A DNA stretch of 62,705 bases, the filler included, from Globobulimina sp. (lineage: Eukaryota): the NCBI GenBank assembly GCA_003354225.1. It is 20 parts of 20 records of this genome, joined end to end, with 100 filler letters (N's around TTAATTAATTAA, not from the genome) between each part and the next. Parts side by side here need not be neighbours in the genome. Positions count along the whole stretch, not along the records: positions 56,530 to 59,567 come from PIVH01003927.1; 19 more parts are not named here. The stretch is one strand, 5' to 3'. The translations under genes were made by a program, and so were the position numbers. This document shows positions 756-59,667 of the stretch, one piece after another. The notes under the pieces were generated by a model that was not told the DNA's origin, ran no database searches, and worked only from the letters and a program-made list of their open reading frames with translations. Position 1 is the stretch's first letter; every line of letters begins with the position of its first letter.

Positions 756-2425
756 TTAATCCAATTTTGTATATTTATATTGAAAATTTTTATTCTTTGA
801 CAATTTTCTTTGATTTTTATATATATTTTCAAATATAACTTCATCCGTTTTTGTTTGCAATGACAACGAACCAAAATATGAGAATAATTTATTTTCTTGA
901 GTTTTTTTATTTTTTTTCACACCAAAATCAAAATAATCAAACTTAACAACATCCTCAATACCATTCATATGACAAATTTGTTCAAAATTTGAAAATATTT
1001 TCTTTTCTTCACCTACTTTTTTGAGAAGTGCGTATATACAAAATGTTAATTGTAACACACCAAACATGACAATCCATGTAAATCTGATCAAATCGTCCTG
1101 TCTCTTATCCACCTCATCGCGCACAATGGCCACCATCACAGTGGTCGCCACTAAAAATAAAAAGGAGACCAACATATATTTGTCTAATAAGGTAAAATAC
1201 GGCTTTGATTTGGTCTTAATACTGGACGCCACGGCTGTTAATATTAAGGTTAACACCAAATTAAATCTATCAACGTAGGACTTGACGGGTATACTAAATA
1301 AAGCTAATGACAAACCGCATAATAACATAATAATCAACGGCTGATTCAATAAGATATCAAACCATCGTCGTTGCATTTTTAGCGACAATATTATGGCGGT
1401 TTTTTCCCGCGATACACGATCACCGACTGCGATATCACCGATATCCAAAAAGGCAGCTTTCATACTAAATATATATAATCCAAATCATAGGCATTGATGT
1501 GATAATTTCACAAAATACTCAAGGAATATGATTTGGATTTTATTTTCAACGACAAAACCAACCTAAATTCGCCGATTTCGATACATTTCCTGGTCACGAC
1601 ACAGAAATTTCTCTCTCGAAATTCTGGATAAAACACGAATTTTTTGCTGTTATCCACTAAGATTGTGGTCAAATCCTGACAATCAAATGGATAGTTTTGC
1701 ATTTCATATTCTTCATTAATTTGGCATTCGAAGATAACTTTTGTGCGAATAAACCATATCTTGTCAGAAGTCATGTTTTTGTTCATAACCGCCACATCTT
1801 TGAATCTTTTTAATTTGAATTTCTCGTAAATGACGTCGACCTCTCTGGCATTCCTACATTCAAATTGTGGATGATCGTCGGGAACCCACCAATTACACTC
1901 AGATCCGTCCGGTTCTGGCTCATGCTTTTCTTTTCTTTGTTTTTTCAAATCTTTCTGGCAACTTTCAAAGGCTTTACATTCATCGTATTCTTCTTTGGTC
2001 GGTACCCAATTTAAATACATTTGGAAATATATATGAAACGTTTCTTCCTCATCATCGACGCCAAAAACATCATTCACTTTCACGCCAATAAAAACGGGTC
2101 TTTTTTCTTTTTTATTTGGTTTTTTCGCAAACCATTCACCTGAATCTGATTGATATAAATTATAATATATTTCACGATAATGCGGTGGGAATTCTGCCCA
2201 TTTTTTGGCTTCTTTTTTATCGTTATTATCATCAAGACTTGTCATTGTAAGATGTCGACCCATACAAGTTTTATCAAATGGTGCTTTTTTTTCCTCTTCC
2301 ACTTCAATTGATAGTAATTCAGTTAGCTTTTCTTTGGTTTGTTCAGCGGTTACTTCCGGTGTTAATTCCGGTGTTAATGATCGCTGTGATTTGGCTGTGG
2401 TTGCACCATATCTGTTAAGCGCCAT
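756..2425 (-). CDS. Pentameric ligand-gated ion channel subunit, Cys-less type; join(2425..1563,1464..756)
   Basis: Extracellular domain with VNDVFGVDDEEETFHIYF and the YPFDCQ loop. An inferred intron at 1465-1562 (GTTGGT...TTTAG) joins it in frame to four TM helices (M1 NQPLIIMLLCGLSL, M2 DRFNLVLTLILTAVA, M3 PYFTLLDKYMLVSFLFL, M4). Confidence 0.85.
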
Positions 2426-2613
2426 GATCGCTACTTTTTAACACTTAACAGATTTGAAAAGATGGTTTATCACTAACTATTGTTGACTTTTCCATTCTGT
2501 TTCATGTTATATTAGTAGTATATTATAAATAATTTAATAATCACAACACAATAAAAAACACAAAAACGTTTGTTTACAAAAAACACAAAAACTTTTGTTT
2601 ACAAAAAAACATG

Positions 2614-2973
2614 TCACAAATCAACCACATTTCCTATATAACAGGGCGACCTTCCATTATTAATATGATATGAATCAGGAAATGAATGTGATTCTTCACC
2701 ATTTAAAAATATATGACGATTATGTGTCTGCAGACTCTGCACAGTGTCGTCCTCATCACTGCTGAGTCCCATTACAGCCGCAGCATTCGCAATGATAGCA
2801 TTAATCTCTTGCTGATCAATCGCAATATCATCTGCATCATTTCTATGTATCTGAATCATTTTAAGATTATCATCTTCAGACAGTCCATCCGATTCATCCA
2901 CGTTGTTCCTTATTATGCTTATATGTCGTTCATACGCTGCATGACCAACGTTATCAATGTCACTCTCATGCAC
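2614..2973 (-). CDS. Acidic hypothetical protein, probably the 3' part of a gene cut by the contig end
   Basis: 119-aa Asp/Glu-rich ORF with no recognised domain. Confidence 0.35.
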   Translation of the reverse strand: MHESDIDNVGHAAYERHISIIRNNVDESDGLSEDDNLKMIQIHRNDADDIAIDQQEINAIIANAAAVMGLSSDEDDTVQSLQTHNRHIFLNGEESHSFPDSYHINNGRSPCYIGNVVDL

Positions 2974-3043
2974 TGAATCCTCATCACCTAAATTACGATG
3001 AATTGCTTTACTTTCGTATTTATTCTCATTTTTAACAGTAAGT

Positions 3044-3143
3044 NNNNNNNNNNNNNNNNNNNNNNNNNNNNNNNNNNNNNNNNNNNNTTAATTAATTAAN
3101 NNNNNNNNNNNNNNNNNNNNNNNNNNNNNNNNNNNNNNNNNNN
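3044..3143. other. Artificial contig-joining spacer N44-TTAATTAATTAA-N44 (first of 19)
   Basis: Identical 100-bp spacers at 3044, 6187, 9330, 12473, 15616, 18758, 21900, 25041, 28182, 31322, 34461, 37600, 40739, 43878, 47016, 50154, 53292, 56430 and 59568. The core has stops in all six frames, and the segments between spacers shrink from 3043 to 3038 bp. Confidence 0.99.
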
Positions 3144-3488
3144 ATATGACAATATTAACACAATCACAAATACCCAAAATGGTTGTACCATGATCAAGCA
3201 TCCATTTAAAATGACTTAAAATTTTTGAGCTCACTGGGAATGCAGTCATAATGGCAAACTGTGACAAAGCAAGAGACGATTGAAAGATTGGATATTGTGT
3301 TACTGATATTGGTGTTACTGATATTGGTATTACTTATTATGATGAAATTAAATTGATTCAAGACATATAATGTATACAAAACATCAGAAACAAAACATGT
3401 TAAAAGTCAAAAAATAACGGATCCTTAATAAACTAAATAATTCAAAAAATTCAAAAAATAATTATACAAAGTCAAAATTCATTTTGAT

Positions 3489-5738
3489 TTATTTTTTTAA
3501 TTTGTCCGATGAAATGAATAATAATTGCCGTAAACACATTGTAGCATAACATGATTTTTCTAATTGTAATGATACAATCCATGCAGTTCTTTTCTTTCTT
3601 TTCTTGCCATCATCATCCTGTTTCATATCATCATCTTCATCTTCATCCTGATCCATATCATCATCATTCTGTTCCTTATTATCATCTTCATTCTGTCCCT
3701 TATTATCACCATCATCATGTTCCATATCATCATCTTCATCATGTCCCATATTATCATCAACATTCTGTTCCTTTTCCTTTTCCTTTTTAATCAGTCTCTT
3801 TCCAAGATTTGGTACATCCATCAACAATTCTTCATGATGCCGATACTTTTTGACAACCCCTTCAATATTCGTAGCTTTCGCCAAAATATTTCTATAATTG
3901 GTGGTAACGCCCCATACATCCATCTTATTAAACGACTTCAATGCCAATCCATCCCTCTCCAATAAATCATGCATACATTTAACCACATCCTCTAAACGCG
4001 GCAACATAATATTTGGCGAAGCCAACGGAAATACCACATCAAAAATATCATATTGATCAATATTTGCTTGCGTTAAATATTCGAAATTACAGTTTACATC
4101 TTCCCCCGTAACGTCTCTTTTTTCTTTCAATCGCACAATATCTCCAATCACCGCCTCATATCCATACTTCTTTATCCTTTCCGAGACACAGTGGTTCCAA
4201 ATATAACTCTGATACGAATGTGTATACATTGAACGAGTGCGCGTTGCCATTCTCATAAATACCAATCCGTAATCCACCGAATTCGGCGAGTCAAACTGCA
4301 CCAAATTCTTAATACACCTCTTTTCGATCCCTAATTCGTGTGGAAAATCTTTAATATCTCCACTGGCAACAAATTCATTTCTTCGCTTCGAAAAATGTCC
4401 GTTTTCGCCAGCACGCGGTAATATTAATAGAGCCAATGCCAAATCTAACTTTTTGGCAAAGATAGCCCGGCCAACCAAATGCGTTCCAACTCGCGAAGCA
4501 CCAAAGCGTTGCATGCCAAAATAATTTATAAATCCCGTATTGCTCAAAATATCCAATCTGTCCTTTAATTCGCTTTCCTGTACTGTTGAATGTGCCTTTC
4601 CTTCATTCAAATAACGGACATTTCGCAATGCGATGTTAAATTCATTGCCGAGCGAACATCCCAACTGAATTTCATCCGCAACATATTCAAAATTACCAAC
4701 GCGAACATTGTGGAGTCCAGACACGGCCTTATTGAGCTTAGCAGCCGTGACATGCCAAGCTGTTGCAACTTGCGAAGTCACAGCGTGTTTGTCCTTCATT
4801 CCGGCGATGGAAAAAGTTTTGGAGTTTACGCGTAATTTGTCACCAATTTTGCGTAAACAGTGCTGGTTATCCATTCCACATTTCACTAACACAAATTTCA
4901 AGTAAGCGCCTCTGCGCGACGACCACCTTTGTGTAGCAACCTTAGCTTTGATTATTCTCGCTTCAATGCAGGAGGAATGAAGCGAAGAACCATGATTTGT
5001 TTTGGTGGCAACATGCGGTAAACGTTGCAATGCGGTATGGATTTTGGTTCTTTTTTCTTTATCTTTGCACTCATCAAAAAGAAATGGTTTTGCAATTTCT
5101 GCCTTTTCTGGCGGTGGGATGGTAACAATGATAAAATCCTCCTCTTCTTTTTTCTCGTAATCTGTATTTTTTGGTTCTCGAAGGGATTGTGTGGATTTTT
5201 TAAACCAATGTATAAACTTTTGCGCTTTTCCCATGGTCACTAATGAGAGTAATTGCCGATAGACGGCCTCGACGTTGGTATAGATATCCGATTGAGATTC
5301 GATATCCATTATATTTTCGGACCGTTCATCTTTTATTAATTCATTATTTGTGAATTTAACAACTTTTCCTGATTCATCAATTTCGGAGACGATAAAGTCT
5401 TCGTATTTGTGTTTAAAACTTGCAATGATTGGTTTAGGTGCTTTTGAGTCGTCAGCAATAAAATGTTGAATACCAACATCACATTCGGAAAATTCGGGTA
5501 ATTTCATTAAATCAATAGATTCAATTTGCAAAGCATCTTGTAAGTCTTCCATGAATTTTCGACATTTCTTTCTTTTCCCTTTTGCTGATATTCTTGTTCT
5601 TGTTGGTTTTTGCTTTTTTAATGAACTCAATCGGTTATAACCCTTAGGAAATTTTCGACGTTTTTTCTTTGGAGGAGCGGAGCCTTTGTTTCCATATTCT
5701 CGATTTCTTTTTTTGTTGAGTGTTGGCTTTGTTTCCAT
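3489..5738 (-). CDS. PUS7: TruD-family pseudouridine synthase (PUS7)
   Basis: Motifs AGMKDKHAVTSQ (catalytic Asp), LGNEFNIALR, GFINYFGMQRFG, SYQSYIWN and CYATMCLRQL. Basic N-terminus and an acidic repeat insert near the C-terminus. Confidence 0.95.
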   Translation of the reverse strand: METKPTLNKKRNREYGNKGSAPPKKKRRKFPKGYNRLSSLKKQKPTRTRISAKGKRKKCRKFMEDLQDALQIESIDLMKLPEFSECDVGIQHFIADDSKAPKPIIASFKHKYEDFIVSEIDESGKVVKFTNNELIKDERSENIMDIESQSDIYTNVEAVYRQLLSLVTMGKAQKFIHWFKKSTQSLREPKNTDYEKKEEEDFIIVTIPPPEKAEIAKPFLFDECKDKEKRTKIHTALQRLPHVATKTNHGSSLHSSCIEARIIKAKVATQRWSSRRGAYLKFVLVKCGMDNQHCLRKIGDKLRVNSKTFSIAGMKDKHAVTSQVATAWHVTAAKLNKAVSGLHNVRVGNFEYVADEIQLGCSLGNEFNIALRNVRYLNEGKAHSTVQESELKDRLDILSNTGFINYFGMQRFGASRVGTHLVGRAIFAKKLDLALALLILPRAGENGHFSKRRNEFVASGDIKDFPHELGIEKRCIKNLVQFDSPNSVDYGLVFMRMATRTRSMYTHSYQSYIWNHCVSERIKKYGYEAVIGDIVRLKEKRDVTGEDVNCNFEYLTQANIDQYDIFDVVFPLASPNIMLPRLEDVVKCMHDLLERDGLALKSFNKMDVWGVTTNYRNILAKATNIEGVVKKYRHHEELLMDVPNLGKRLIKKEKEKEQNVDDNMGHDEDDDMEHDDGDNKGQNEDDNKEQNDDDMDQDEDEDDDMKQDDDGKKRKKRTAWIVSLQLEKSCYATMCLRQLLFISSDKLKK

Positions 5739-6286
5739 ATTCTCACTGTTTTTTGCTGCAAAATACTGAACTTTTTACTTGAACATTTATTGAAATTTGT
5801 AATGTCATCAAAAGAGAAACGATTTGTAAACGCATTGTTGACCTTTGCAAATGTATGAATTCATTGAATTGTATTTGTATTATGGAGGTAACTTATGTAT
5901 GGTGTGCAAAAAAAAGAAAACTTAAAAAACAATACATTTAATTACTATACAATTGTACGTAAAACTGTATGGTATGCAAAATGATGATAAAATACAAAGG
6001 AAAATATTAAAAATCAATAAGTGTTTTATTCAACTCATATATTATTATCTTTTTTGGAGTTGTTTTATTTATTTCTGAAATTCACATTGTGTTTGTTTTG
6101 AAGCAATCATGCTTCTTCACAGCACTTATGATGGCACTGATTCTTTTTGTGGTTCCTCTGGAATTAATTGATCGCATTGGCCTAATNNNNNNNNNNNNNN
6201 NNNNNNNNNNNNNNNNNNNNNNNNNNNNNNTTAATTAATTAANNNNNNNNNNNNNNNNNNNNNNNNNNNNNNNNNNNNNNNNNNNN

Positions 6287-7445
6287 CTAGTCTAGATTTA
6301 GTTCTCTCTAGCGTTAATTGATGAAAAATGGAATTCATTCTCAATGCATACTTATTAACATTGTATCTCTCCGTACTGTATGAATCCAACAATGATACAT
6401 CACATACTTTGTTAACCACCAAAGCCAATTTCCAGGCTAAATTAGAGACATCATGGAAACCCAAATTCATTCCATGACCTAATATAAATGAGCAAACATG
6501 AGCTGCATCTCCTGCTAAAAATATTCGATTTCTTGAATATTGTTGAATTTGTGTTGATTGATGCACGCGGAAATTTGTTGACCACAACATCTTTATGATG
6601 GTTACGCCATTTAACCCTCTTTCATTGAATAATTTGTGCCAATCAGCTTCATTCGGTTTCTCAAAGACACCATTATGATAATTTAATAATTGTTTTTCAT
6701 TCATTTCTGCAATAATAGCCCATGAACCATCACGAAATTTAAAACAACTACAGCCACCATTCGTTCCTTTTAATAAGGACAAATGTTTTCTTTCTTTAAA
6801 TGGCATATTCTTTAAATAGCCATGAAATTGAATAAATCCTTCCTTATACTGCTTAGCTGGAAATGAAAATTTTAATTTTGAACGAACAAACGATTTTGAC
6901 CCATCGCAACCAATCAAATATCTAACTTTTAAAATTTCTTTCTTTTGATTTTGTTTGTTTAGTTTAACTGTGACGTATTTTCCTTCATCCACAAACTGAA
7001 TTAATTCCACTCCTCGTTCTAATGATACATTATAATTTTGTTGTAAACACTGTAGAATGAGGTTTTCAGTTTTATATTGTTGATGACCTGTTGAAGTGTT
7101 AAATCGTGAATCTGCAGAGTGAACACTATACTTTGCATGACGAACAGTTTCAAATTGATCTTGCGATGTGCAGTTGGGTGGATAATGTAACAACATATAT
7201 TCCTCTACATTTTGAGCAGTTGATAAAATGTTATCTAACAACTTACCGTCGCATGAGTCAAATATTTCCATGGACCTTGCTTGAATATTAAATGCTTTCG
7301 GCCATTGACTTTGTTTCTGTCTTTTATCTATTATCCGAATACGACAAGGTTTTATTCCATTGCTGCACAATTGAAGTGCACAAAGTAAACCAGTTGGTCC
7401 ACCACCAACCACTAACACATCTAAATCAAAATCTGTGTCTTGCAT
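6287..7445 (-). CDS. FAD-dependent monooxygenase (PheA/TfdB-like, FAD_binding_3), 3' truncated by contig end
   Basis: VLVVGGGPTGL, LIGCDGSKSFVR, IFLAGDAAH, GMNLGFHDVSNLAWKL and LLDSYSTER motifs. Likely ATG at 7445. Confidence 0.9.
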
Positions 7446-9429: not shown

Positions 9430-12400
9430 ATCCCTCTTCAATCCCACCACCGCCACCGCCACCATATCACCATCATCATCACCCACATCCGCATCCCTTT
9501 GATGGTCCTCCACCCCATCAATTATTCAATGCACAGTACGCCTCCGGTCTCCATATCCCAGTGACACCAGTCAGACACATCGGAGTCCCACCAAACGTAG
9601 TCTTAACCCCCATTCATGGCCCACCTCCACGGCCACATAATGTTCGATTTATAAACTCAAGTTTTAATGTCCCGCCCGTACAAACAATCTACAACAACAA
9701 TAATAACAACAACCATTCTGACAACGCATTAACTAACATCCGACAAAAGGAATTGTTACCAATCAATCCCAATAACCACATGTACGCAAATTCGCAACCC
9801 ACTCACAACAATGTCCCGCCACATATCAGATCCACCTTAAATTCGATGCAAAACAACAACGCCAACAATGACGGCACCAACAAAGGTAGCAATGTGGGCT
9901 TAGCTCAAATGCCGGCCATCCAATCTGCAAACCGTCCCAAACAACAACCATTTGGCTACTCTGAATTCCAGGGACAAATGAAGCGCATTCAAACGTGGAA
10001 TAAAAAGAAAATTAAACAAGAACAACAATTAAAGGAAATCGACGAGAAATCCATTGGTGTGCCACAACTCCATAACGCCGATAATGAGCAAAATATCACC
10101 GGACGCGCTCATTTCATCCCCTCTCATAACCACAATGATGGCAGGATGCTACACAATGAATATTCGCACATTGGTTATGATCCCAATCAATATGACAATG
10201 ATCGTAAACGCAAACGGCCCGATGAGTTATCGGACGATTATTATTCTGAGACAGACGAAGAAGACTATGACATGGCGGACTTATTAGGCGATACCACCAC
10301 TGAGAGTGAGGAGGATCTGCACTTGGATGGCTATGGCGGTCCGCCCAAAAAGAAAAAACGCAAAAAAAGCAGCAACGGGCGACACAGGAACAGAATGAGC
10401 AAAACCGAGCGCAAAAAGCAATATCTACATTACATGAAACAGTTCGTCGGCATTGAAAACTCGTTAAATGCGTTGCAAGCCATTGAACCGATGGAGGATT
10501 TGAAAAAATCGCGCAAAGAATACCACGGTGACAGCAACTTAATGGTTGAAAAGATTCTACATCGGCGCGAGTACGAAAACCCCGACACCGGCTTACCCAA
10601 ATACGAATATTATGTGCTGTACAAATATTTATCCTATCTCCACTGCGAATGGATGAGCGAGGATTTACTCTTAGAACGCGAGAAAAAGGGCAATCAGAAA
10701 ATCAAACGCTTCATCAAACAGGGCAATGTGAACTGGTGCGAAGGAGTGGAGCTATTTGACATCAACTTCAGTACAGTGGACCGCATATTGTCCGCGCGGC
10801 CCGGTCCAGGCTATAACGACGGCGATACGCGCTTTGAGTATTTCGTCAAATTCAATGGCCTGAATTACAGTGATTGTCGCTGGGAGTTTGCAGACGACAT
10901 CGATGACGACAGTAAGATCATCTCGTTCCAGAAACGGAGTTTGTTGAATAACAATATCTGGGAACCGAAGATCCGGCCTCGCGCCAATTTTTATAAGCCA
11001 ATATCGGAGCAGATGGCGGTGTATAAAGACAATAATAAGTTGCATGAGTGGCAGGTGGAAGGCGTGAATTGGTTAATATTCAATTGGTACAATCGGCGGG
11101 GCGGCATCTTGGCGGATGAGATGGGTTTAGGCAAAACCGTGCAAGTGGTGGCTACGTTGGAGGCCATCTGCAAGATCTATTGCCATGGCCCCTTTTTAGT
11201 GGTGGCGCCATTGTCCACTATCAATCATTGGAAGCGAGAGATTGAAGGTTGGACGGATTTAAATGCGGTCATTTATCAAGGAAACAAAGAGGATCGCCGC
11301 ATTTGCCATTTCTTCGAGTTCCGCTATTTTGACAATACGGGGCGGAGATTGATACATAACGATATTTATAAGTTCGATATATTGATCACGACGTATGAGA
11401 GTGTCATGTTAGATGACGAGTTGCAAGGAATTAAGTGGAAGGTCGTGGTGGTGGACGAAGCGCACCGTTTGAAGAATAATGAGGCGAAATTGAGCAAACA
11501 TCTGCGGAAATGCAAGGTGGAGCATAGTATATTATTGACGGGCACGCCGATTCAAAACAATATGCGCGAACTGTGGAATTTGCTGAATTTTGTGGATGCG
11601 AACACGTTTGTGTCGTATAAGGACTTTGAGTACAAATACGGCGATGATAAAATGAAATCAGATGAGCAAATCCATGATTTAAAATCGCTGATTAAGCCGT
11701 ATTTTTTGCGCAGATTGAAGGAGGACGTCGCCAAGTTCATACCGGAGAAAAAGGAGACGATCATTGAGGTGGAATTGACGCGTATACAGAAGCAATATTA
11801 TCGTGCCTTGTTGGAGAAGAATCGCGAGTTTTTGTATCGCGGTGTGTCGACGCGGAATGCGCCCAAATTGACGAACATCGCCAATGACCTCCGTAACATT
11901 TGCAACCATCCCTATTTAATCTCGGGTGCGTACCAACGGATTACGAGTGGTTTGAAAACGATGGAGGAAAAGATAAATATTATGATTTCCTCCAGTGGCA
12001 AGTTTATATTATTGGACAAGTTGCTGCCTAAATTGCGCAATAACGGCAATAAAGTGTTGATATTTTCACAATGGAGAATTACTTTAGATTGGATCGAAGA
12101 GTATATTCGTCGTAAAATGTATCCCTATGAGCGGATTGATGGTAATATCACAGGCAATTCGCGGCAGGCCGCCATTGATAGATTTTGTGCGCCAAATAGC
12201 GAACAAGACTCATTTATATTTTTATTAACCACGAAAGCCGGCGGGGTGGGCTTGAATTTGACTGCGGCGGATACGGTGATTATAAACGATTCGGATTGGA
12301 ATCCCCAAAATGATATACAAGCCATGGCGCGATGTCATCGTATCGGGCAACATAAATCCGTCAAAGTGTATAGGTTAATCACCTCCCGTTCGTACGAAAA

Positions 12401-12472
12401 GGAGATGTTTATCAAAGCGAGCAAGAAATTGGGATTAGGCCAAGCCATTATGGGTGGTACGATGGAGGGGGA
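9430..12472 (+). CDS. CHD-family chromodomain helicase (SNF2 ATPase), partial at both ends
   Basis: Tandem chromodomains (YYVLYKYLSYLHCEW; YFVKFNGLNYSDCRWE), ILADEMGLGKT, VVDEAHRLKN, LLTGTPIQNN and DSDWNPQNDIQAMARCHRIGQ. Confidence 0.95.
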
Positions 12473-13074
12473 NNNNNNNNNNNNNNNNNNNNNNNNNNNN
12501 NNNNNNNNNNNNNNNNTTAATTAATTAANNNNNNNNNNNNNNNNNNNNNNNNNNNNNNNNNNNNNNNNNNNNATCCCCAAAGCATATTGCACCTACTGAT
12601 GGAAGATGCAAAAATTGATGCAAGATGTGCACAACAGTATGTAGTATTACTGTACTTAGTTAGTATAAGCATTAATGGTTTACAGTTGAAAGGCAATGAA
12701 AAGCAATAATGTATACCCCTGTGTAGATTTTCACATGTCACCATAGTTTGAATTGACAGGTACACCTTTCTCTGGAAGTATACAAGTTCAGTTCAGTAAT
12801 AACAAACTAGTTATCTCAAAAGTTATCTTACAAAGTTACAGGCCATCGAAAATCGAATTGCATTGTATTATCTTCTTGCTGCTGCGGATCGCCATGGAAA
12901 AACTTGTTAACTAATCCCTAACATACAAGGCAACCCTTCTGTATGTTTGACATTGCCTGATGTTGTTGGCCATACACAGACTGCATGAAAAGTTATAGTT
13001 CCTTTGTAATAGTCATCGCGGTCGTTGGTACAATATGTCTTTCCACTTCATAACATAAGACTTCGATTTGGATG

Positions 13075-42172: not shown

Positions 42173-43054
42173 ATGTTGGACATAAATCACATGCTGCAAT
42201 CAAAATGGTCATTCTTTTCATTACCTCCTATGCCGAAAGATACAGAGCCAGCATGGCCAGATCCGTCAACATTTTATTCGGATTTGTTAGCAAACGGATT
42301 ATTTCAACAATTATGCATTGTAGGATTAATTATATTTTATTTATTAGATATTTTAGGATGTTACATCTATGATAAATATGTTCCCAAAGCTGAAAAAAAT
42401 AGACTCCAACGGGAGCAATTTGCTGGAACCTTTATCTCAATGTTTCATTCATTGATGATTGCAGTTTCAGCGACATTGGTGGTCTTTTTTTATTTACCAA
42501 TGGATGTATTAAAGGCGGATAGTAATGAAATAATAATATTACAATATAGATATTGTGCAACATTCAGTGGCTCGTATTTCTTATTGGATACTTTATTTAT
42601 AAGCTATTATTATAACTGGTCCACTGCTAAAAAAGTTGTATTTGTGCTCCATCATTTTTCATCGGGGATATGCGTCATAACTCCAATTGTTTGCCATCCC
42701 ATTATTAGCTATATCTCTGCATTGGCTTTTTTAGTGGAATGGAGTACGGTAATTCTAAATATCCGAATATTTGCACGAATTTGGTCTAGAAAATATTTAT
42801 ATTTTGTATCCGGATGGGCAGTAATTATCACATATCCATTGTTAAGAATCTTGTGGTATTCGTACATGATTCTTATTGCGTGCACATCCGAATACCTTTC
42901 CAATTATTCAGCAGCCGGCGCCTCATTTGTTTTAGGAGGCGCTGAAATATTTGTAATGTTGTTATCAGTATATTATTATTTTGCTGTTATGATGCGAAAT
43001 CCACAAAACATGTACATATTGAAACGACAAAGTGAACCTAAAAAAGATTGCTAA
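42173..43054 (+). CDS. TLC (TRAM/LAG1/CLN8) domain membrane protein
   Basis: ISMFHS, FSGSYFLLD, FVLHH, LVEWSTVILNIR and YPLLRI. Confidence 0.85.
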   Translation: MLDINHMLQSKWSFFSLPPMPKDTEPAWPDPSTFYSDLLANGLFQQLCIVGLIIFYLLDILGCYIYDKYVPKAEKNRLQREQFAGTFISMFHSLMIAVSATLVVFFYLPMDVLKADSNEIIILQYRYCATFSGSYFLLDTLFISYYYNWSTAKKVVFVLHHFSSGICVITPIVCHPIISYISALAFLVEWSTVILNIRIFARIWSRKYLYFVSGWAVIITYPLLRILWYSYMILIACTSEYLSNYSAAGASFVLGGAEIFVMLLSVYYYFAVMMRNPQNMYILKRQSEPKKDC

Positions 43055-43353
43055 TCTGTTGTTCTTGCACAAATATAAACTTTTCATATAATTATTACGT
43101 TTTCAATTTTTGCTGATGTTTGTACTTATTAACGATATTCCAAAAGATAACTCCCCCACCCCTTTGTATACCGAAAATTCAATTATAAATTTGTTCTGAC
43201 TTTGTTCTGGATTTGCAAACCCAATTAAGACAAAGTTATAACAAACCCAGAACAAACCCAAGACAAACCTATAGCAAACCGTTTCTGAAAAGCGTTTCTC
43301 AGAATATATCGTTTAGGCATTTTTGCTTTATCGTAAAAATCTATTTATACTAA

Positions 43354-49098: not shown

Positions 49099-50153
49099 TT
49101 ACATAATTATTTTGCCGATAGTGCTAGTTTTTGTTACTTTTTCCAATTCGGACTGTATATCATCATCGATTTCATCATTATTTTTTTGAGTCATTTCTAA
49201 ATCCACATTTCCCTCTCTATCACCATCCACATTCCCTTCTCCATCCACAGTATCCTTTGTGGCGGGTAATATTGTGTTGTTATTCGTGTTTGCTTTTAAT
49301 TTAACATATCGAGTGTTGTTATTATATGTATTTTTTATTAATTGCTTGTTACGATCTTGCAAATCATTTTGAATATCATCAAATATCTGATGAATATATT
49401 GATTCTTATTGTTTTGCAAATCATCAATCGTTTTATTCACAAATTCATATAACATATAACTGCCAATCTCCGTATTTATTTTTGATTGGAAACCTCTGTT
49501 TGCTGCGTTAATTTCAACCAAACGATTATCCGGATTTTTTGTGTTATAATCCCAAATTACCATTGACTCTGTTTTTTTGATATCATCCACTGTAAAACTT
49601 TTGCATTTCTCTTCAACATCTTCTGTTTTTGATGGCTGTTCTGTACGTTTTCTAATTCGTTTTCCATGCTCATTATCACCATCACAGCAATCAAACAAAA
49701 ATATTCTTGGAATCTCGCGCGACAATGGGTGGTTTTGTGAAAATATACGATGCACAGAAGTTTTGTCAATCATTTTATAATCAGATGTGCAAATATTATC
49801 ATTCCAGCCATGACCAGATATTGCTACAATAAGACCATCAAAAATATGCAAATTACGCTCCAACAAACCTGCTTTTTCTGTTAACAAACTTATAATTTGC
49901 TCCTGCGTCCAATATATATTAATATTACTGCTGCTGTTATAATTTGGATAAACTGTATAGTTGAGATTATTACAACTAAATAATCGGCACAGATTTTTAA
50001 TATCCAAATCGACTGCATCCAAATCGCATAAATACACATGTTTTAATTCTTGATCTGCGTCATTTGGCTCTTGGTCATATATACCAACAGCTAATAATAT
50101 TACCATTGCATTTTTCATTATATAGTCATTGTTTTGTGCTTGTTCTGCTTTAT
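49099..50153 (-). CDS. Caspase-like peptidase (C14), 5' partial
   Basis: Catalytic His motif VAISGHG, Cys motif PRIFLFDCCDG, and a p10-like region with GFQS...GSYML. The frame is open to the contig end. Confidence 0.85.
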
Positions 50154-56268: not shown

Positions 56269-56529
56269 CAATTGCAATAATATACTGAAAACGGAGAAAA
56301 AAATAGTTTGATCGAAAAAATGTTTCACTCATTGTATTAATATTAAATTATTTATTAATTATTGCTACTATCACTAAACGATACATTCAAAAAGATACCC
56401 CGCCCCCCCCCATGTATACATTTTTCTCGNNNNNNNNNNNNNNNNNNNNNNNNNNNNNNNNNNNNNNNNNNNNTTAATTAATTAANNNNNNNNNNNNNNN
56501 NNNNNNNNNNNNNNNNNNNNNNNNNNNNN

Positions 56530-56884
56530 CAAATTGTAAATAATGATGAAGATTGGGATTAATTAAATGATTTATTTTGTTTTTAGCAAAGTCGATTTGC
56601 ATAAATTCTTTAAATCTATTTAAAATCAATGAATTTTCATCAACTTTATTTTGTAGATCATTATTTATAGCAAATGAGTTATGTTCAATAACATCGATTT
56701 GATGACTGTTTGAATTATGATTATTTGATTGCGAATTACGTTGATTCTCGAATGCGATTCTAGATCTTTTCAATTTTGTGTCGCGTAATCGATCAATTTC
56801 ATGTGTCATATTTGCATCGTCATCATTCTGTTCTAATTTATCATTTTTATTTTTATTTAATTCTTTGATTTGTATTTTATACAT
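56530..56884 (-). CDS. Asn-rich hypothetical ORF downstream of the ribozyme motif, 3' partial
   Basis: ATG at 56884, open to the contig end, on the same strand as the RT. No domain recognised. Confidence 0.45.
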
Positions 56885-57087
56885 AATTTGATGAATAAAT
56901 AAATAATATATATTGATATTATTTATGATATTTGATTTGATTCTAATCGTAATGATTTAGGGAATTTGTAATCTTGCGATACAAATAGTAATTGATGAGG
57001 TAACTTCCAACGAGTGGATAAGAGGGGAGACGTAAAATCTATATGGATAGATACGAGATTCACTCTTCAACGAAATACTAAAACAAT

Positions 57088-57149
57088 TTTATAAATTAAA
57101 TTAGTGACTAGTTTCGTGCTAAAATGCACTGATTCACACTTTTGATAAA
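57088..57149 (-). ncRNA. Candidate minimal type I hammerhead ribozyme with variant core
   Basis: The minus strand 57140-57103 reads AGT-GTGAATCA-GTGC-ATTTTA-GCAC-GAAA-CTAG-TC-ACT. That gives stem I AGT/ACT, stem II GTGC/GCAC, GAAA, a palindromic ACTAGT stem III and a GUC cleavage triplet. It lies in the 3' region of a Penelope-like RT. Confidence 0.65.
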
Positions 57150-57511
57150 CGTGAAAGGAAAAAACTGAAGGTTCTTGATTAAAAATCAAAAAACTTTGAG
57201 TTTGTAACACTTTGTGAAACAAATAATAAACACACACGTAATATATAAAAACACCATAAAAAGAAAAATCTGGGAAACACTAATAACGAGTGCGTAATAA
57301 ACGAATTTAATCCAAACTAACTCTAAATATATAAAAAAACAAAAACATAAAAATTGTGCACAACAATAAAGGGAATGGAATAAAAAGCGTTCAATATTTT
57401 CAATAACAAAATAAAAATACATAAAACAGTAAATTTATAATGTATCTAATTAAATAGAACAAAGAAAATAATTAAAATAGGGTAAAAAGTATAAAAATAA
57501 ACAATGAAAAC

Positions 57512-59567
57512 TTAATTTAAATATCTCATTAATTTATCATCAGTTTTATTGCAAATAGATATTTTAATCTTTTCTGCAAAATCTTGAGGTAATATACTCT
57601 TAAATTGTTTGAATATTTCTCTAAATCGATTATCATCATCAAATAATTGTTGATATACCTTTTTAAAATATATCGTTTTAACTTCATCTTCTTCAATTTC
57701 TTGCAAATATTTACTGCTTAAATCTGATATTCTTTCTTCAGACAAAAACTTAAACTCCGGACCCCAAATATTTTCGTCGTATAATTTCAAAAGATTTACA
57801 TAATATTTTTTCAATCTGTTTTCTTTTAATTTATCCAAATAAATATCTCGGTTAATATATTGAGGGAGTTTACGTTTTTTGAGGATTTGTCTAATAACAA
57901 CCGGCGGGAAATCACGGTTTTTCATTCTTTTTATCAATTTTTTAGTGAACGATTTGTGTTTCGTTTCACTATCATTTAAACAAATGGATCTAAATAAGAA
58001 TGAAAAGAAAATACATTCTTTTTGATTGAATGGGTTATTTGAATGGAAATGTAAATTTATATGCAAATTCAATGGCTTTTCGTACATAAATGTTACAATT
58101 CTGTTTGTTAAATGACATATTATCGACGTAGTATCCAAAAAAATAGATCTTTTGGAATATTTTGTTTTTAATACGAGGTTTTTTGGATAGATATTGTTTA
58201 ATGCAATTTTTCAATTTCGTCGTTAAATTGATCATTATCGATATCGATGATAGTTTTTAAATCGTCGATATACCGTTTCCTTAATGGAATATCACAATAA
58301 GTCAGAAATCGAATTGAATTATGAAAGATTCTTAGATTTTTAACTTCGTATCCATACAAACACAAATTTGCTAATGGGCCAGAATGGAAATTGCCAGTTC
58401 CTAAACCTATGACCATTTTTCGTGTCCAATTTTTGTATTTAATATATGTATTATCTCTGAACAACATTAACGAATCAATAACAAAATGGAATTTAAACGG
58501 ATTATATTCCAGATCACTTTGGATGTAATTTAAAATATCAAGGCATTGATTTAAAATCATTGAATCATACAACGCCACGACGTCAGAATCGAAGCTAAAT
58601 CTGTCTGTATTATTAAAATGGTGATCCTTTTCATTGATTGATTTGTAATTATTTATAAGTTCAAATGAGTTATTTAATACAATGAATAATTGCTTCTTTT
58701 CTTGGAATAACACTAACATTTCATCCAAAATGTTGCCAGTGTATACCGATAAAAATTGCGTATAAAAGTTGCCTGGATTGAAAATAAAACGCCATCCAAT
58801 TTTATGCAATTTCATCATCGGTCGAAGCTTGGGAAGAGGGAGGATTTTATTTTCATATTCAATCTTTTCCCAATCATTAAAAATACGATTCTTTCTCCAT
58901 TTTTCTCTGAAATAATTCAAGTGTTTTTGTGTAACACTTCTAACCAAAACAGAGATATTACGCGAGACTGCATTGCCCGACGCATAAACTGGTTTAAATT
59001 GCGGGCCATCTAAAAATTTGAGCACTTCCGTGTCTAATACACATACATCAATATAGACACTGCCCATCTTCTTATCTGACTCAATAATCGTAAATTTGTT
59101 CTTTTTTAATTCAAATAAGATGCCACGGATTGCTTTCGTTGTATTTTGGCGTTGGATATAATACTTTTTATTAAAAAAACACTTACTTTTCTTATTATTA
59201 ATATGTTGATTAACATTAATATCCAAGAAATTGTACGCTTTTTCTAATTCGTCGCTGGCAAATCTTTGTTTATTGTATGTTTCATTAAAAAACTTTGATA
59301 AACTTGATTTAAAATTGGTTTTTGCTCTTTTTATGCCTTTTGACCATAGTTTGATTGAGGGATTATCCAACGTATAATTACGGCCTTTATGTCCTATAAT
59401 TTTCACAATAAATGGGAGCGATTTCAACTCAGTTTTATTAAATATAGATTTGGGAAAACTTGTTTCCTTATTTCTATATTCTTTATATTTACTATGAGAT
59501 TGCGGATGAGGTGTTTTTGAACGGTATAAACCCGGACAAACGCATTCGGCGATGGTTAGACTGTCAG
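57512..59567 (-). mobile_element. Penelope-like retroelement reverse transcriptase (RT core plus thumb), one frameshift, 5' partial, no C-terminal GIY-YIG
   Basis: IIESDKKMGSVYID, PKLRPMMKLHK..WRFI, SDVVALYDSM, GLGTGNFHSGPLANL and RYIDD. After a shift near 58207-58211 it continues LNNIYPKNL...IFLD, YEKPLN..LHFHSNNP..QK and RDFP. The frame is open from the contig end at 59567. Confidence 0.88.
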
Positions 59568-59667
59568 NNNNNNNNNNNNNNNNNNNNNNNNNNNNNNNNN
59601 NNNNNNNNNNNTTAATTAATTAANNNNNNNNNNNNNNNNNNNNNNNNNNNNNNNNNNNNNNNNNNNN

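Follow-up and report, generated by a model that had tools for sequence, protein, structure and literature searches.

The repeats of Penelope-like elements (PLEs) carry minimal type I hammerhead ribozymes that are distinguished by a palindromic helix III, an unpaired nucleotide at A9/10.1, and a G10.1-C11.1 pair (PMC4209133). Their 5' core strand usually consists of seven core nucleotides followed by one unpaired nucleotide before stem II, eight in total, and the ribozymes are barely active in vitro, with weak activity as dimers (PMC4209133). Within the element they occupy the flanking repeats or a site close to the 3' end (PMC4209133, PMC8557442), and among PLE clades only Naiad and most of Chlamys are described as having none (PMC8557442). 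The terms Rhizaria, foraminifer, and Reticulomyxa do not occur in that PLE survey (PMC8557442). Among the literature matches listed, none treats a hammerhead or a Penelope-like element together with foraminifera or Rhizaria, the one co-occurrence being an entry in a reference list.

Variation in the core has been reported in several of these systems. Natural U3-A8 covariation is present in the Cercyon PLEs of Schistosoma (PMC4209133), and natural U3-A8 pairs are found in several further hammerheads (PMC3088659). A natural insertion after A6, designated A6a, was accompanied by low activity and is expected to disturb a backbone contact with U4 (PMC3088659). In the PAc PLE hammerhead of Anolis, C3G or G8C alone abolishes activity and the C3G/G8C double mutant partly restores it; this ribozyme cut only with added protein, and insertion in vitro did not depend on its cleavage (PMC11167929). 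A G3-C8 variant was more active with G17 than with C17, a result given as 'data not shown' in that source and one that fits a G3-C17 trap (PMC3884650). The terms for core variation that were searched do not occur in a 2026 preprint on animal retrozymes.

The locus described here lies in a 62,705-nt stretch of DNA, which was analysed as a whole and which we refer to as the window (1-62705). The window is made of approximately 20 separate contigs, in descending order from 3043 to 3038 nt, chained by linkers of the form N44-TTAATTAATTAA-N44 (for example, 56430-56529 and 59568-59667) that appear as paired 44-N runs every ~3.14 kb. Sequence outside 56530-59567 has no physical linkage to the contig that bears the element, and gene neighbourhood across the linkers is meaningless. 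The element-bearing contig (56530..59567) is 3038 nt long and cuts the reverse transcriptase (RT) open reading frame at its 5' end. Long uninterrupted frames on other contigs encode a chromo and SNF2 helicase protein (9561-12524, plus strand), a TruD pseudouridine synthase (3489-5738, minus strand), and a caspase-fold peptidase of the metacaspase type (49099-50118, minus strand); a protein kinase is also encoded among them. The organism is an intron-poor eukaryote with a GC content of ~30-37%. On the element-bearing contig itself, downstream of the element, a minus-strand open frame with many N, K, D, and Q residues extends from 56884 into the contig end (56530-56884). No family was assigned to this frame, which could be host sequence or noise.

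The RT gene occupies two frames of the minus strand. The N-terminal and core part (58201..59567) contains the motifs DKxMG, LRPMxKLHK..WR, DVVALYD, and RYIDD and has lost its 5' end at the contig end, while the C-terminal part (57512..58195) contains the FLD...YEKPLNLH...HFHSNNP region and terminates at a TAA codon (57514-57512). The reading frame shifts once, near 58195-58201, beside a run of A, at a place where all aligned relatives read through. A 669-residue relative (P0001) that is 38% identical to the window RT spans both pieces unbroken, which implies that the window copy is frameshifted or misassembled; the shift may mark a dead copy or an error of assembly at the homopolymer. An exhaustive phmmer search returned 505 relatives at E<=1e-3, 19 of them at <=1e-30, and the close relatives are 600-740 residues long and end where the window frame ends. 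The two closest relatives with a source label, which is from EukProt (P0002 and P0005), belong to the protein set of the foraminifer Nonionella stella, suggesting that this RT family lives in Foraminifera. A second copy of the element was sought in the window; the repeat search returned only the Ns of the linkers, and tblastn with 14 family proteins returned only this RT.

Family assignment of the RT drew on profiles and on a structure model. Pfam gave only noise at E<=10 for the two window pieces and for P0001, with no RVT_1 assignment. A domain scan covered 35 of the 150 relatives listed; RVT_1 was found at E<=1e-3 in 20 of these, eight of which scored above the Pfam cutoff, and one of the 35 combined RVT_1 with a weak C-terminal GIY-YIG match. 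The six closest scanned relatives had no Pfam family. We found no GIY-YIG endonuclease domain in the window frame, and the predicted absence fits the endonuclease-less kinds of PLE. The ESM Atlas model of P0001 aligned over nearly its full length, at TM scores of 0.66-0.79, with clusters of DUF8422, HTH_animal, RVT_1, and GIY-YIG proteins from rotifers, arthropods, and chordates, and this combination of domains is the PLE domain set. Sequence searches of the PDB gave only noise for P0001 and 0 matches for the family profile. The family profile aligned with the RT of a distant metagenomic locus (L001) at an hhalign probability of 99.2% over 479 columns. The family alignment shows DKxMG, LRPMxKLHK..WRRV, RYIDD, and IYEKPLNKH, and the L001 frame reads ADKGSG, RKIHK..LRPIVS, DVKSLY, and RYIDD. 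We take ADKG, KIHK...LRPIVS, DVKSLY, and RYIDD to be hallmarks of PLE RTs. Homology and modelling support the assignment of the gene upstream of the motif as a Penelope-like RT, apparently endonuclease-less, and probably of a rhizarian protist host.

The hammerhead-like motif begins 371 nt beyond the RT stop codon, on the same strand. Read from the sequence of the minus strand, positions 57140 to 57103 give the 38-base RNA AGTGTGAATCAGTGCATTTTAGCACGAAACTAGTCACT, on the sense strand of the RT. The parts follow in type I order with an open stem I: AGU/ACU, GUGC/GCAC, and A-CUAG-U are arranged around the junction. The 5' strand of stem I, AGU (57140-57138), is followed by the 8-nt core strand GUGAAUCA (57137-57130), which stands in place of the consensus CUGANGA. 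Stem-loop II (57116..57129) has four Watson-Crick pairs, with G10.1-C11.1 as the first, and is composed of GUGC (57129-57126), the 6-nt loop AUUUUA (57125-57120), and GCAC (57119-57116). Then come GAAA (57115-57112), representing G12, A13, A14, and A15.1, and the palindromic loop 3, CUAG (57111-57108), so that A15.1-CUAG-U16.1 (U16.1 at 57107) leads into C17 (57106). The return strand of stem I, ACU (57105-57103), forms 3 bp with AGU, and the predicted scissile bond is 57106|57105. A 70-residue open frame runs over the motif.

Comparison with the hammerhead consensus places the departures in a single strand. On the 3' side, G12 A13 A14, the A15.1-U16.1 pair, and a residue at position 17 that is C, not G, are all present, and the palindrome at 15.2-16.2/loop 3 that is typical of PLE minimal hammerheads is provided by ACUAGU. 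The consensus strand C3 U4 G5 A6 N7 G8 A9 is absent, the motif reading GUGAAUCA, of eight nucleotides, in its place; U4 G5 A6 are kept, as is the A that adjoins stem II, and the letters at the two ends are complementary. The 3' core strand, stem II, the minimal palindromic stem III, and the C of the cleavage site are therefore intact, and only the 5' core strand departs. A preliminary description of this DNA had given the motif as 57088-57149, a span that takes in flanks, the motif proper being 57103-57140. On re-reading, the letters were as described there. The perfect 4-bp GUGC/GCAC stem II was recovered both from the sequence and by descriptor match, and the canonical GAAA and U16.1-C17, the predicted cut at 57106|57105, and the palindromic stem III ACUAGU, through which two copies are joined in a modelled cofold, agree with that account. 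Stem I of 3 bp and its possible extension by UUUAU/AUAAA across an internal loop, which is A/U only, are likewise both in the sequence.

The core strand can be read in two registers. In register 1, which the preliminary description adopted, the strand is G3-U4-G5-A6-(A,U)-C8-A9, and no unpaired nucleotide precedes stem II. In register 2, which follows the '7 + 1' layout of PLE hammerheads, it is G3-U4-G5-A6-A7-U8-C9 with one further A left unpaired. Positions 3 and 8 would form a Watson-Crick G-C pair only when two nucleotides are placed between A6 and position 8, and would otherwise be G.U; the unpaired nucleotide before G10.1 is absent in register 1 and present in register 2, in which position 9 becomes C. 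By length the second register is equally possible and would mean a damaged core; the first would describe a ribozyme that is plausible yet handicapped twice over. The sequence by itself does not decide the matter. Register 1 has one point in its favour: every departure from the consensus falls within the 8-nt strand and the remaining 30 nt match perfectly, an outcome that would be rare under random decay.

A metagenome scan with a four-row alignment of the RT family identified three distant loci (L001, L002, and L003) at 22-23% identity; relatives were found in 0 of 15 candidate stretches of genome contigs and in 0 of 49 from viral contigs. L001 contains two tandem RT frames (1960-3768 and 4530-6461) and a minimal hammerhead at 7133-7167 on the plus strand, ~670 nt 3' of the second frame and on the same strand. 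This motif has a U3-A8 core, one unpaired nucleotide, a 4-bp stem II, GAAA, and a palindromic 2-nt loop 3, with a stem I of 3 bp that continues through a small internal loop into a 6-bp extension, and it fits the published PLE minimal hammerhead exactly (PMC4209133). The presence of a minimal hammerhead 3' of the L001 RT frames shows that the RT lineage travels with hammerhead motifs. At L002 and L003, candidate hammerheads with putative stems I at ~2612-2645 and ~3112-3150 (plus strand) lie upstream of the RT match; one has a U3-A8 core with GAAACGTT and the other a C3-G8 core.

We searched the window with several descriptors. The canonical CUGANGA descriptor gave 0 matches in the window, and a descriptor that takes a 7-nt core, allows a bulge, and requires positions 3 and 8 to form a Watson-Crick pair does not match the motif. 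A relaxed descriptor (stem I of at least 3 bp; N-UGA-N1-2-N'-A with N and N' complementary; stem II of at least 4 bp with a loop of 3-10 nt; GAAA; a palindromic loop of 2, 4, or 6 nt; U; H), which was composed after the motif had been seen, gave exactly one match in the 62.7-kb window, the motif itself, and matched 0 of 200 dinucleotide-preserving shuffles, or 1 of 200 when G-U pairs were allowed. Because this descriptor was post hoc, the core was then left free in the shuffles. With any 7-8 nt as the core, 56 of 300 shuffles contained the scaffold, at a mean of 0.227 per window, and stems, GAAA, and palindrome are all cheap in the AT-rich DNA of the window. At the scale of the window, chance could account for the scaffold by itself; the weight consequently rests on the letters of the core together with place and strand. 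The mean of 0.227 covers ~122 kb over both strands, which would correspond to ~0.002 for the ~1 kb of non-coding sequence that follows the RT on its sense strand. A loose-descriptor match at ~43040-43109 on the minus strand (3-bp stems, a U3-A8 core, and a long hairpin III) is AT-rich and was judged to be chance. A pattern of 18 fixed letters, the variant core plus GAAACTAGTC, had 18 matches among prokaryote genomes totalling 596 Gb and another 4 among viral contigs, and stems I and II accompanied none of these 22 matches.

Covariance models and folding were less distinctive. Rfam returned no hammerhead family at the gathering score, and none at E<=10 within 56500-57700. Since Rfam at E<=1 also failed to report the L001 minimal hammerhead, which served as a control, its silence on the motif says little. 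The predicted fold of the motif is not unusually stable (MFE -8.1 kcal/mol, z = -0.88) and pairs AGUG with CACU, which places G3 against C17, in both folds that were predicted. The cofold of two copies gave -18.6 kcal/mol versus 2 x -8.1 for the monomers, with the palindromes paired.

Only one public run, X1, contains the element contig, alongside two further runs of the same sample; all are in the form of contigs, and no RNA run is listed as containing it. X1 is probably the sample from which the window came, so its contigs are not independent evidence. At a likeness of at least 80%, 88 X1 contigs align to the element, and since 56 of these are less than 90% alike, the sample holds many diverged relatives of the element. 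Three contigs are loose-ended at 57142, with near-identical letters resuming after a small indel, a 1-nt deletion at 57098 is common to two contigs, and single contigs each lack one base at 57082, 57087, or 57091. No indel is listed within 57103-57140, and all those listed nearby fall at 57082-57098. Substitutions within 57103-57140 were absent from the 40 of 208 rows listed, each of which represents at least two contigs, so that changes in single contigs are possible. This pattern of indels, taken from tables and not from letters, is a hint of constraint on the motif. Across 57142-57447, no contig of X1 other than the one present in the window gave cover at >=80%.

We consider it very probable that the motif is of hammerhead descent. 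The opposing view, a chance look-alike in an AT-rich 3' UTR in which only a 4-bp hairpin is real, would draw on the frequency of the free-core scaffold (56 of the 300 shuffled windows), on the composition of the 0/200 descriptor after the motif was seen, on a stem I of just 3 bp whose extension is A/U only, on the fold z-score of -0.88, on the silence of Rfam, and on the spurious AT-rich match that a looser descriptor yields elsewhere in the window. It is made improbable by the free-core expectation of ~0.002 for the region behind the RT, by the retention of U4 G5 A6 and of the A before stem II with complementary end letters, and by the lack of stems in all 22 matches to the sequence pattern elsewhere. 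Furthermore, the place and strand are those expected of a PLE hammerhead (PMC8557442, PMC4209133), and the motif is common to other X1 contigs.

Given hammerhead descent, activity is the point at issue. Our leading interpretation, with a probability of about 40%, is that the motif would be a descendant of the minimal type I PLE hammerheads that still cleaves, carried by a PLE-like family without an endonuclease, the nearest named relatives of which come from a foraminifer. Two copies in read-through or tandem transcripts would pair through ACUAGU, or the RT protein of the element would assist; the core would form by G3-C8 pairing with A-U looped out at position 7; and a slow cut after C17 (57106|57105) would trim the element RNA ~400 nt 3' of the reading frame. 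Any cleavage might be weak and dimer- or protein-dependent, a suggestion that we offer tentatively. We placed the cleaving version first since its mechanism is more specific and easier to test, and since the changes do not look random in their pattern: neutral decay would not be expected to confine every departure to the 8-nt core strand and leave the other 30 nt perfect. Weighing against it, the A6a precedent had low activity (PMC3088659), and C17 is present where the G3-C8 variant prefers G17 (PMC3884650). The competing account shares hammerhead descent with the cleaving one, differs from it only on activity, and was rated close to even with it. It holds that the descendant is catalytically dead, having lost C3, G8, and, in register 2, A9, and survives as a relic in a decaying copy or as a conserved 3' structure, for example one recognized by the RT; we regard it as a strong contender that falls somewhat short of probable. 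Because its RT frame is broken, the window copy may indeed be dead. The 8-nt strand has the '7 + 1' length of PLE hammerheads, which makes positions 8 and 9 non-consensus (PMC4209133); the MFE fold favours G3-C17, and for the G3-C8 variant C17 gave lower activity than G17 (PMC3884650); activity was low with the A6a insertion (PMC3088659); PLE insertion in vitro proceeds without hammerhead cleavage (PMC11167929); and there are entire PLE clades that flourish in the absence of canonical hammerheads (PMC8557442). Loss of activity by random decay, however, sits poorly with three core changes that leave the strand ends complementary and all else intact, with X1 contigs that have no listed indel inside the motif and indels in its flanks, and with the partial activity of the G3-C8 double mutant of a PLE hammerhead (PMC11167929). 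The remaining probability belongs to readings that we have not thought of.

The preliminary description had placed the motif 3' of a Penelope-like RT, an identification borne out by homology, by the hhalign probability of 99.2%, and by the Atlas TM scores of 0.66-0.79. The motif also sits where PLE hammerheads do, on the sense strand 371 nt 3' of the RT stop. Its expectation that standard searches would miss the motif was correct, with 0 matches for the CUGANGA descriptor and none in Rfam. The novelty of the further proposal, that of an overlooked ribozyme family, was overstated in view of precedents in PMC4209133, PMC3088659, PMC11167929, and PMC3884650. Precedents cover each of the odd features, and the novelty lies in their combination and in the host lineage. 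The broadest reading, that an endonuclease-less PLE clade in Foraminifera or other Rhizaria carries a selected G3-C8 hammerhead with two looped-out nucleotides at position 7, cleaving as a dimer or with the aid of the RT and invisible to current descriptors and models, seems to us unlikely. If the core works, this would be the first natural G3-C8 hammerhead found in the literature searched, where the matches are engineered or laboratory mutants, with the qualification that the PLE variants of Lunse et al. 2017 may include similar cores. A working core would also mean that a ribozyme under selection can accommodate two nucleotides at position 7, that searches based on CUGANGA may undercount hammerheads, and that it may be worth re-examining PLE clades described as 'lacking canonical HHRs'. 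A dead motif would be an ordinary relic and a reminder of how readily AT-rich DNA yields scaffolds that look like hammerheads. In either case, the RT family contributes a PLE-like lineage that is endonuclease-less and has relatives in a foraminifer.

Of the known systems, the PLE minimal hammerheads (Cervera & de la Pena 2014, PMC4209133) resemble the motif in their type I arrangement, short stem I, G10.1-C11.1 pair, and GAAA, in a 1-bp helix III whose palindromic loop implies dimers, and in a non-coding location 3' of the RT on the sense strand. The motif differs from them in its core, GUGAAUCA instead of CUGANGA plus one unpaired nucleotide, in a stem II of 4 bp compared with 6-8 bp in many metazoan examples, and in an element that is without a GIY-YIG endonuclease and apparently of a protist (PMC4209133). 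The endonuclease-less Athena and Coprina elements, as described in PMC8557442, similarly pair a PLE-type frame that encodes only an RT with a hammerhead motif close to the 3' end. Unlike the window locus, these elements have reverse-complement telomeric repeats next to the hammerhead (PMC8557442); on the 3-kb contig no telomeric array lies beside the motif, and a single CCCTAAA occurs ~140 nt 3' of it.

With respect to the core, the motif resembles the U3-A8 hammerheads of Cercyon (PMC4209133), of PMC3088659, and of L001 in that the putative 3-8 pair is altered on both sides and the core is otherwise retained, and it shares with those of Cercyon (PMC4209133) and L001 the association with a PLE RT. 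Unlike the published U3-A8 hammerheads (PMC4209133, PMC3088659), its pair would be a swapped G-C that needs two nucleotides looped out after A6, whereas the U3-A8 motif of L001 fits the 7-nt register with an unpaired nucleotide without an insertion. As in register 1 of the motif, the A6a hammerhead (Perreault et al. 2011, PMC3088659) has an extra nucleotide between A6 and position 8, but it kept C3-G8 and is apparently not associated with a PLE. The engineered C3G/G8C mutants (Martick & Scott 2006, cited in PMC11167929, and Anolis PAc) are made in the laboratory on a 7-nt core, while the motif is natural, one nucleotide longer, and known from sequence alone (PMC11167929). They contain the G3-C8 pair that is proposed for the motif, and they keep partial cleavage, including in a PLE hammerhead that requires protein (PMC11167929).
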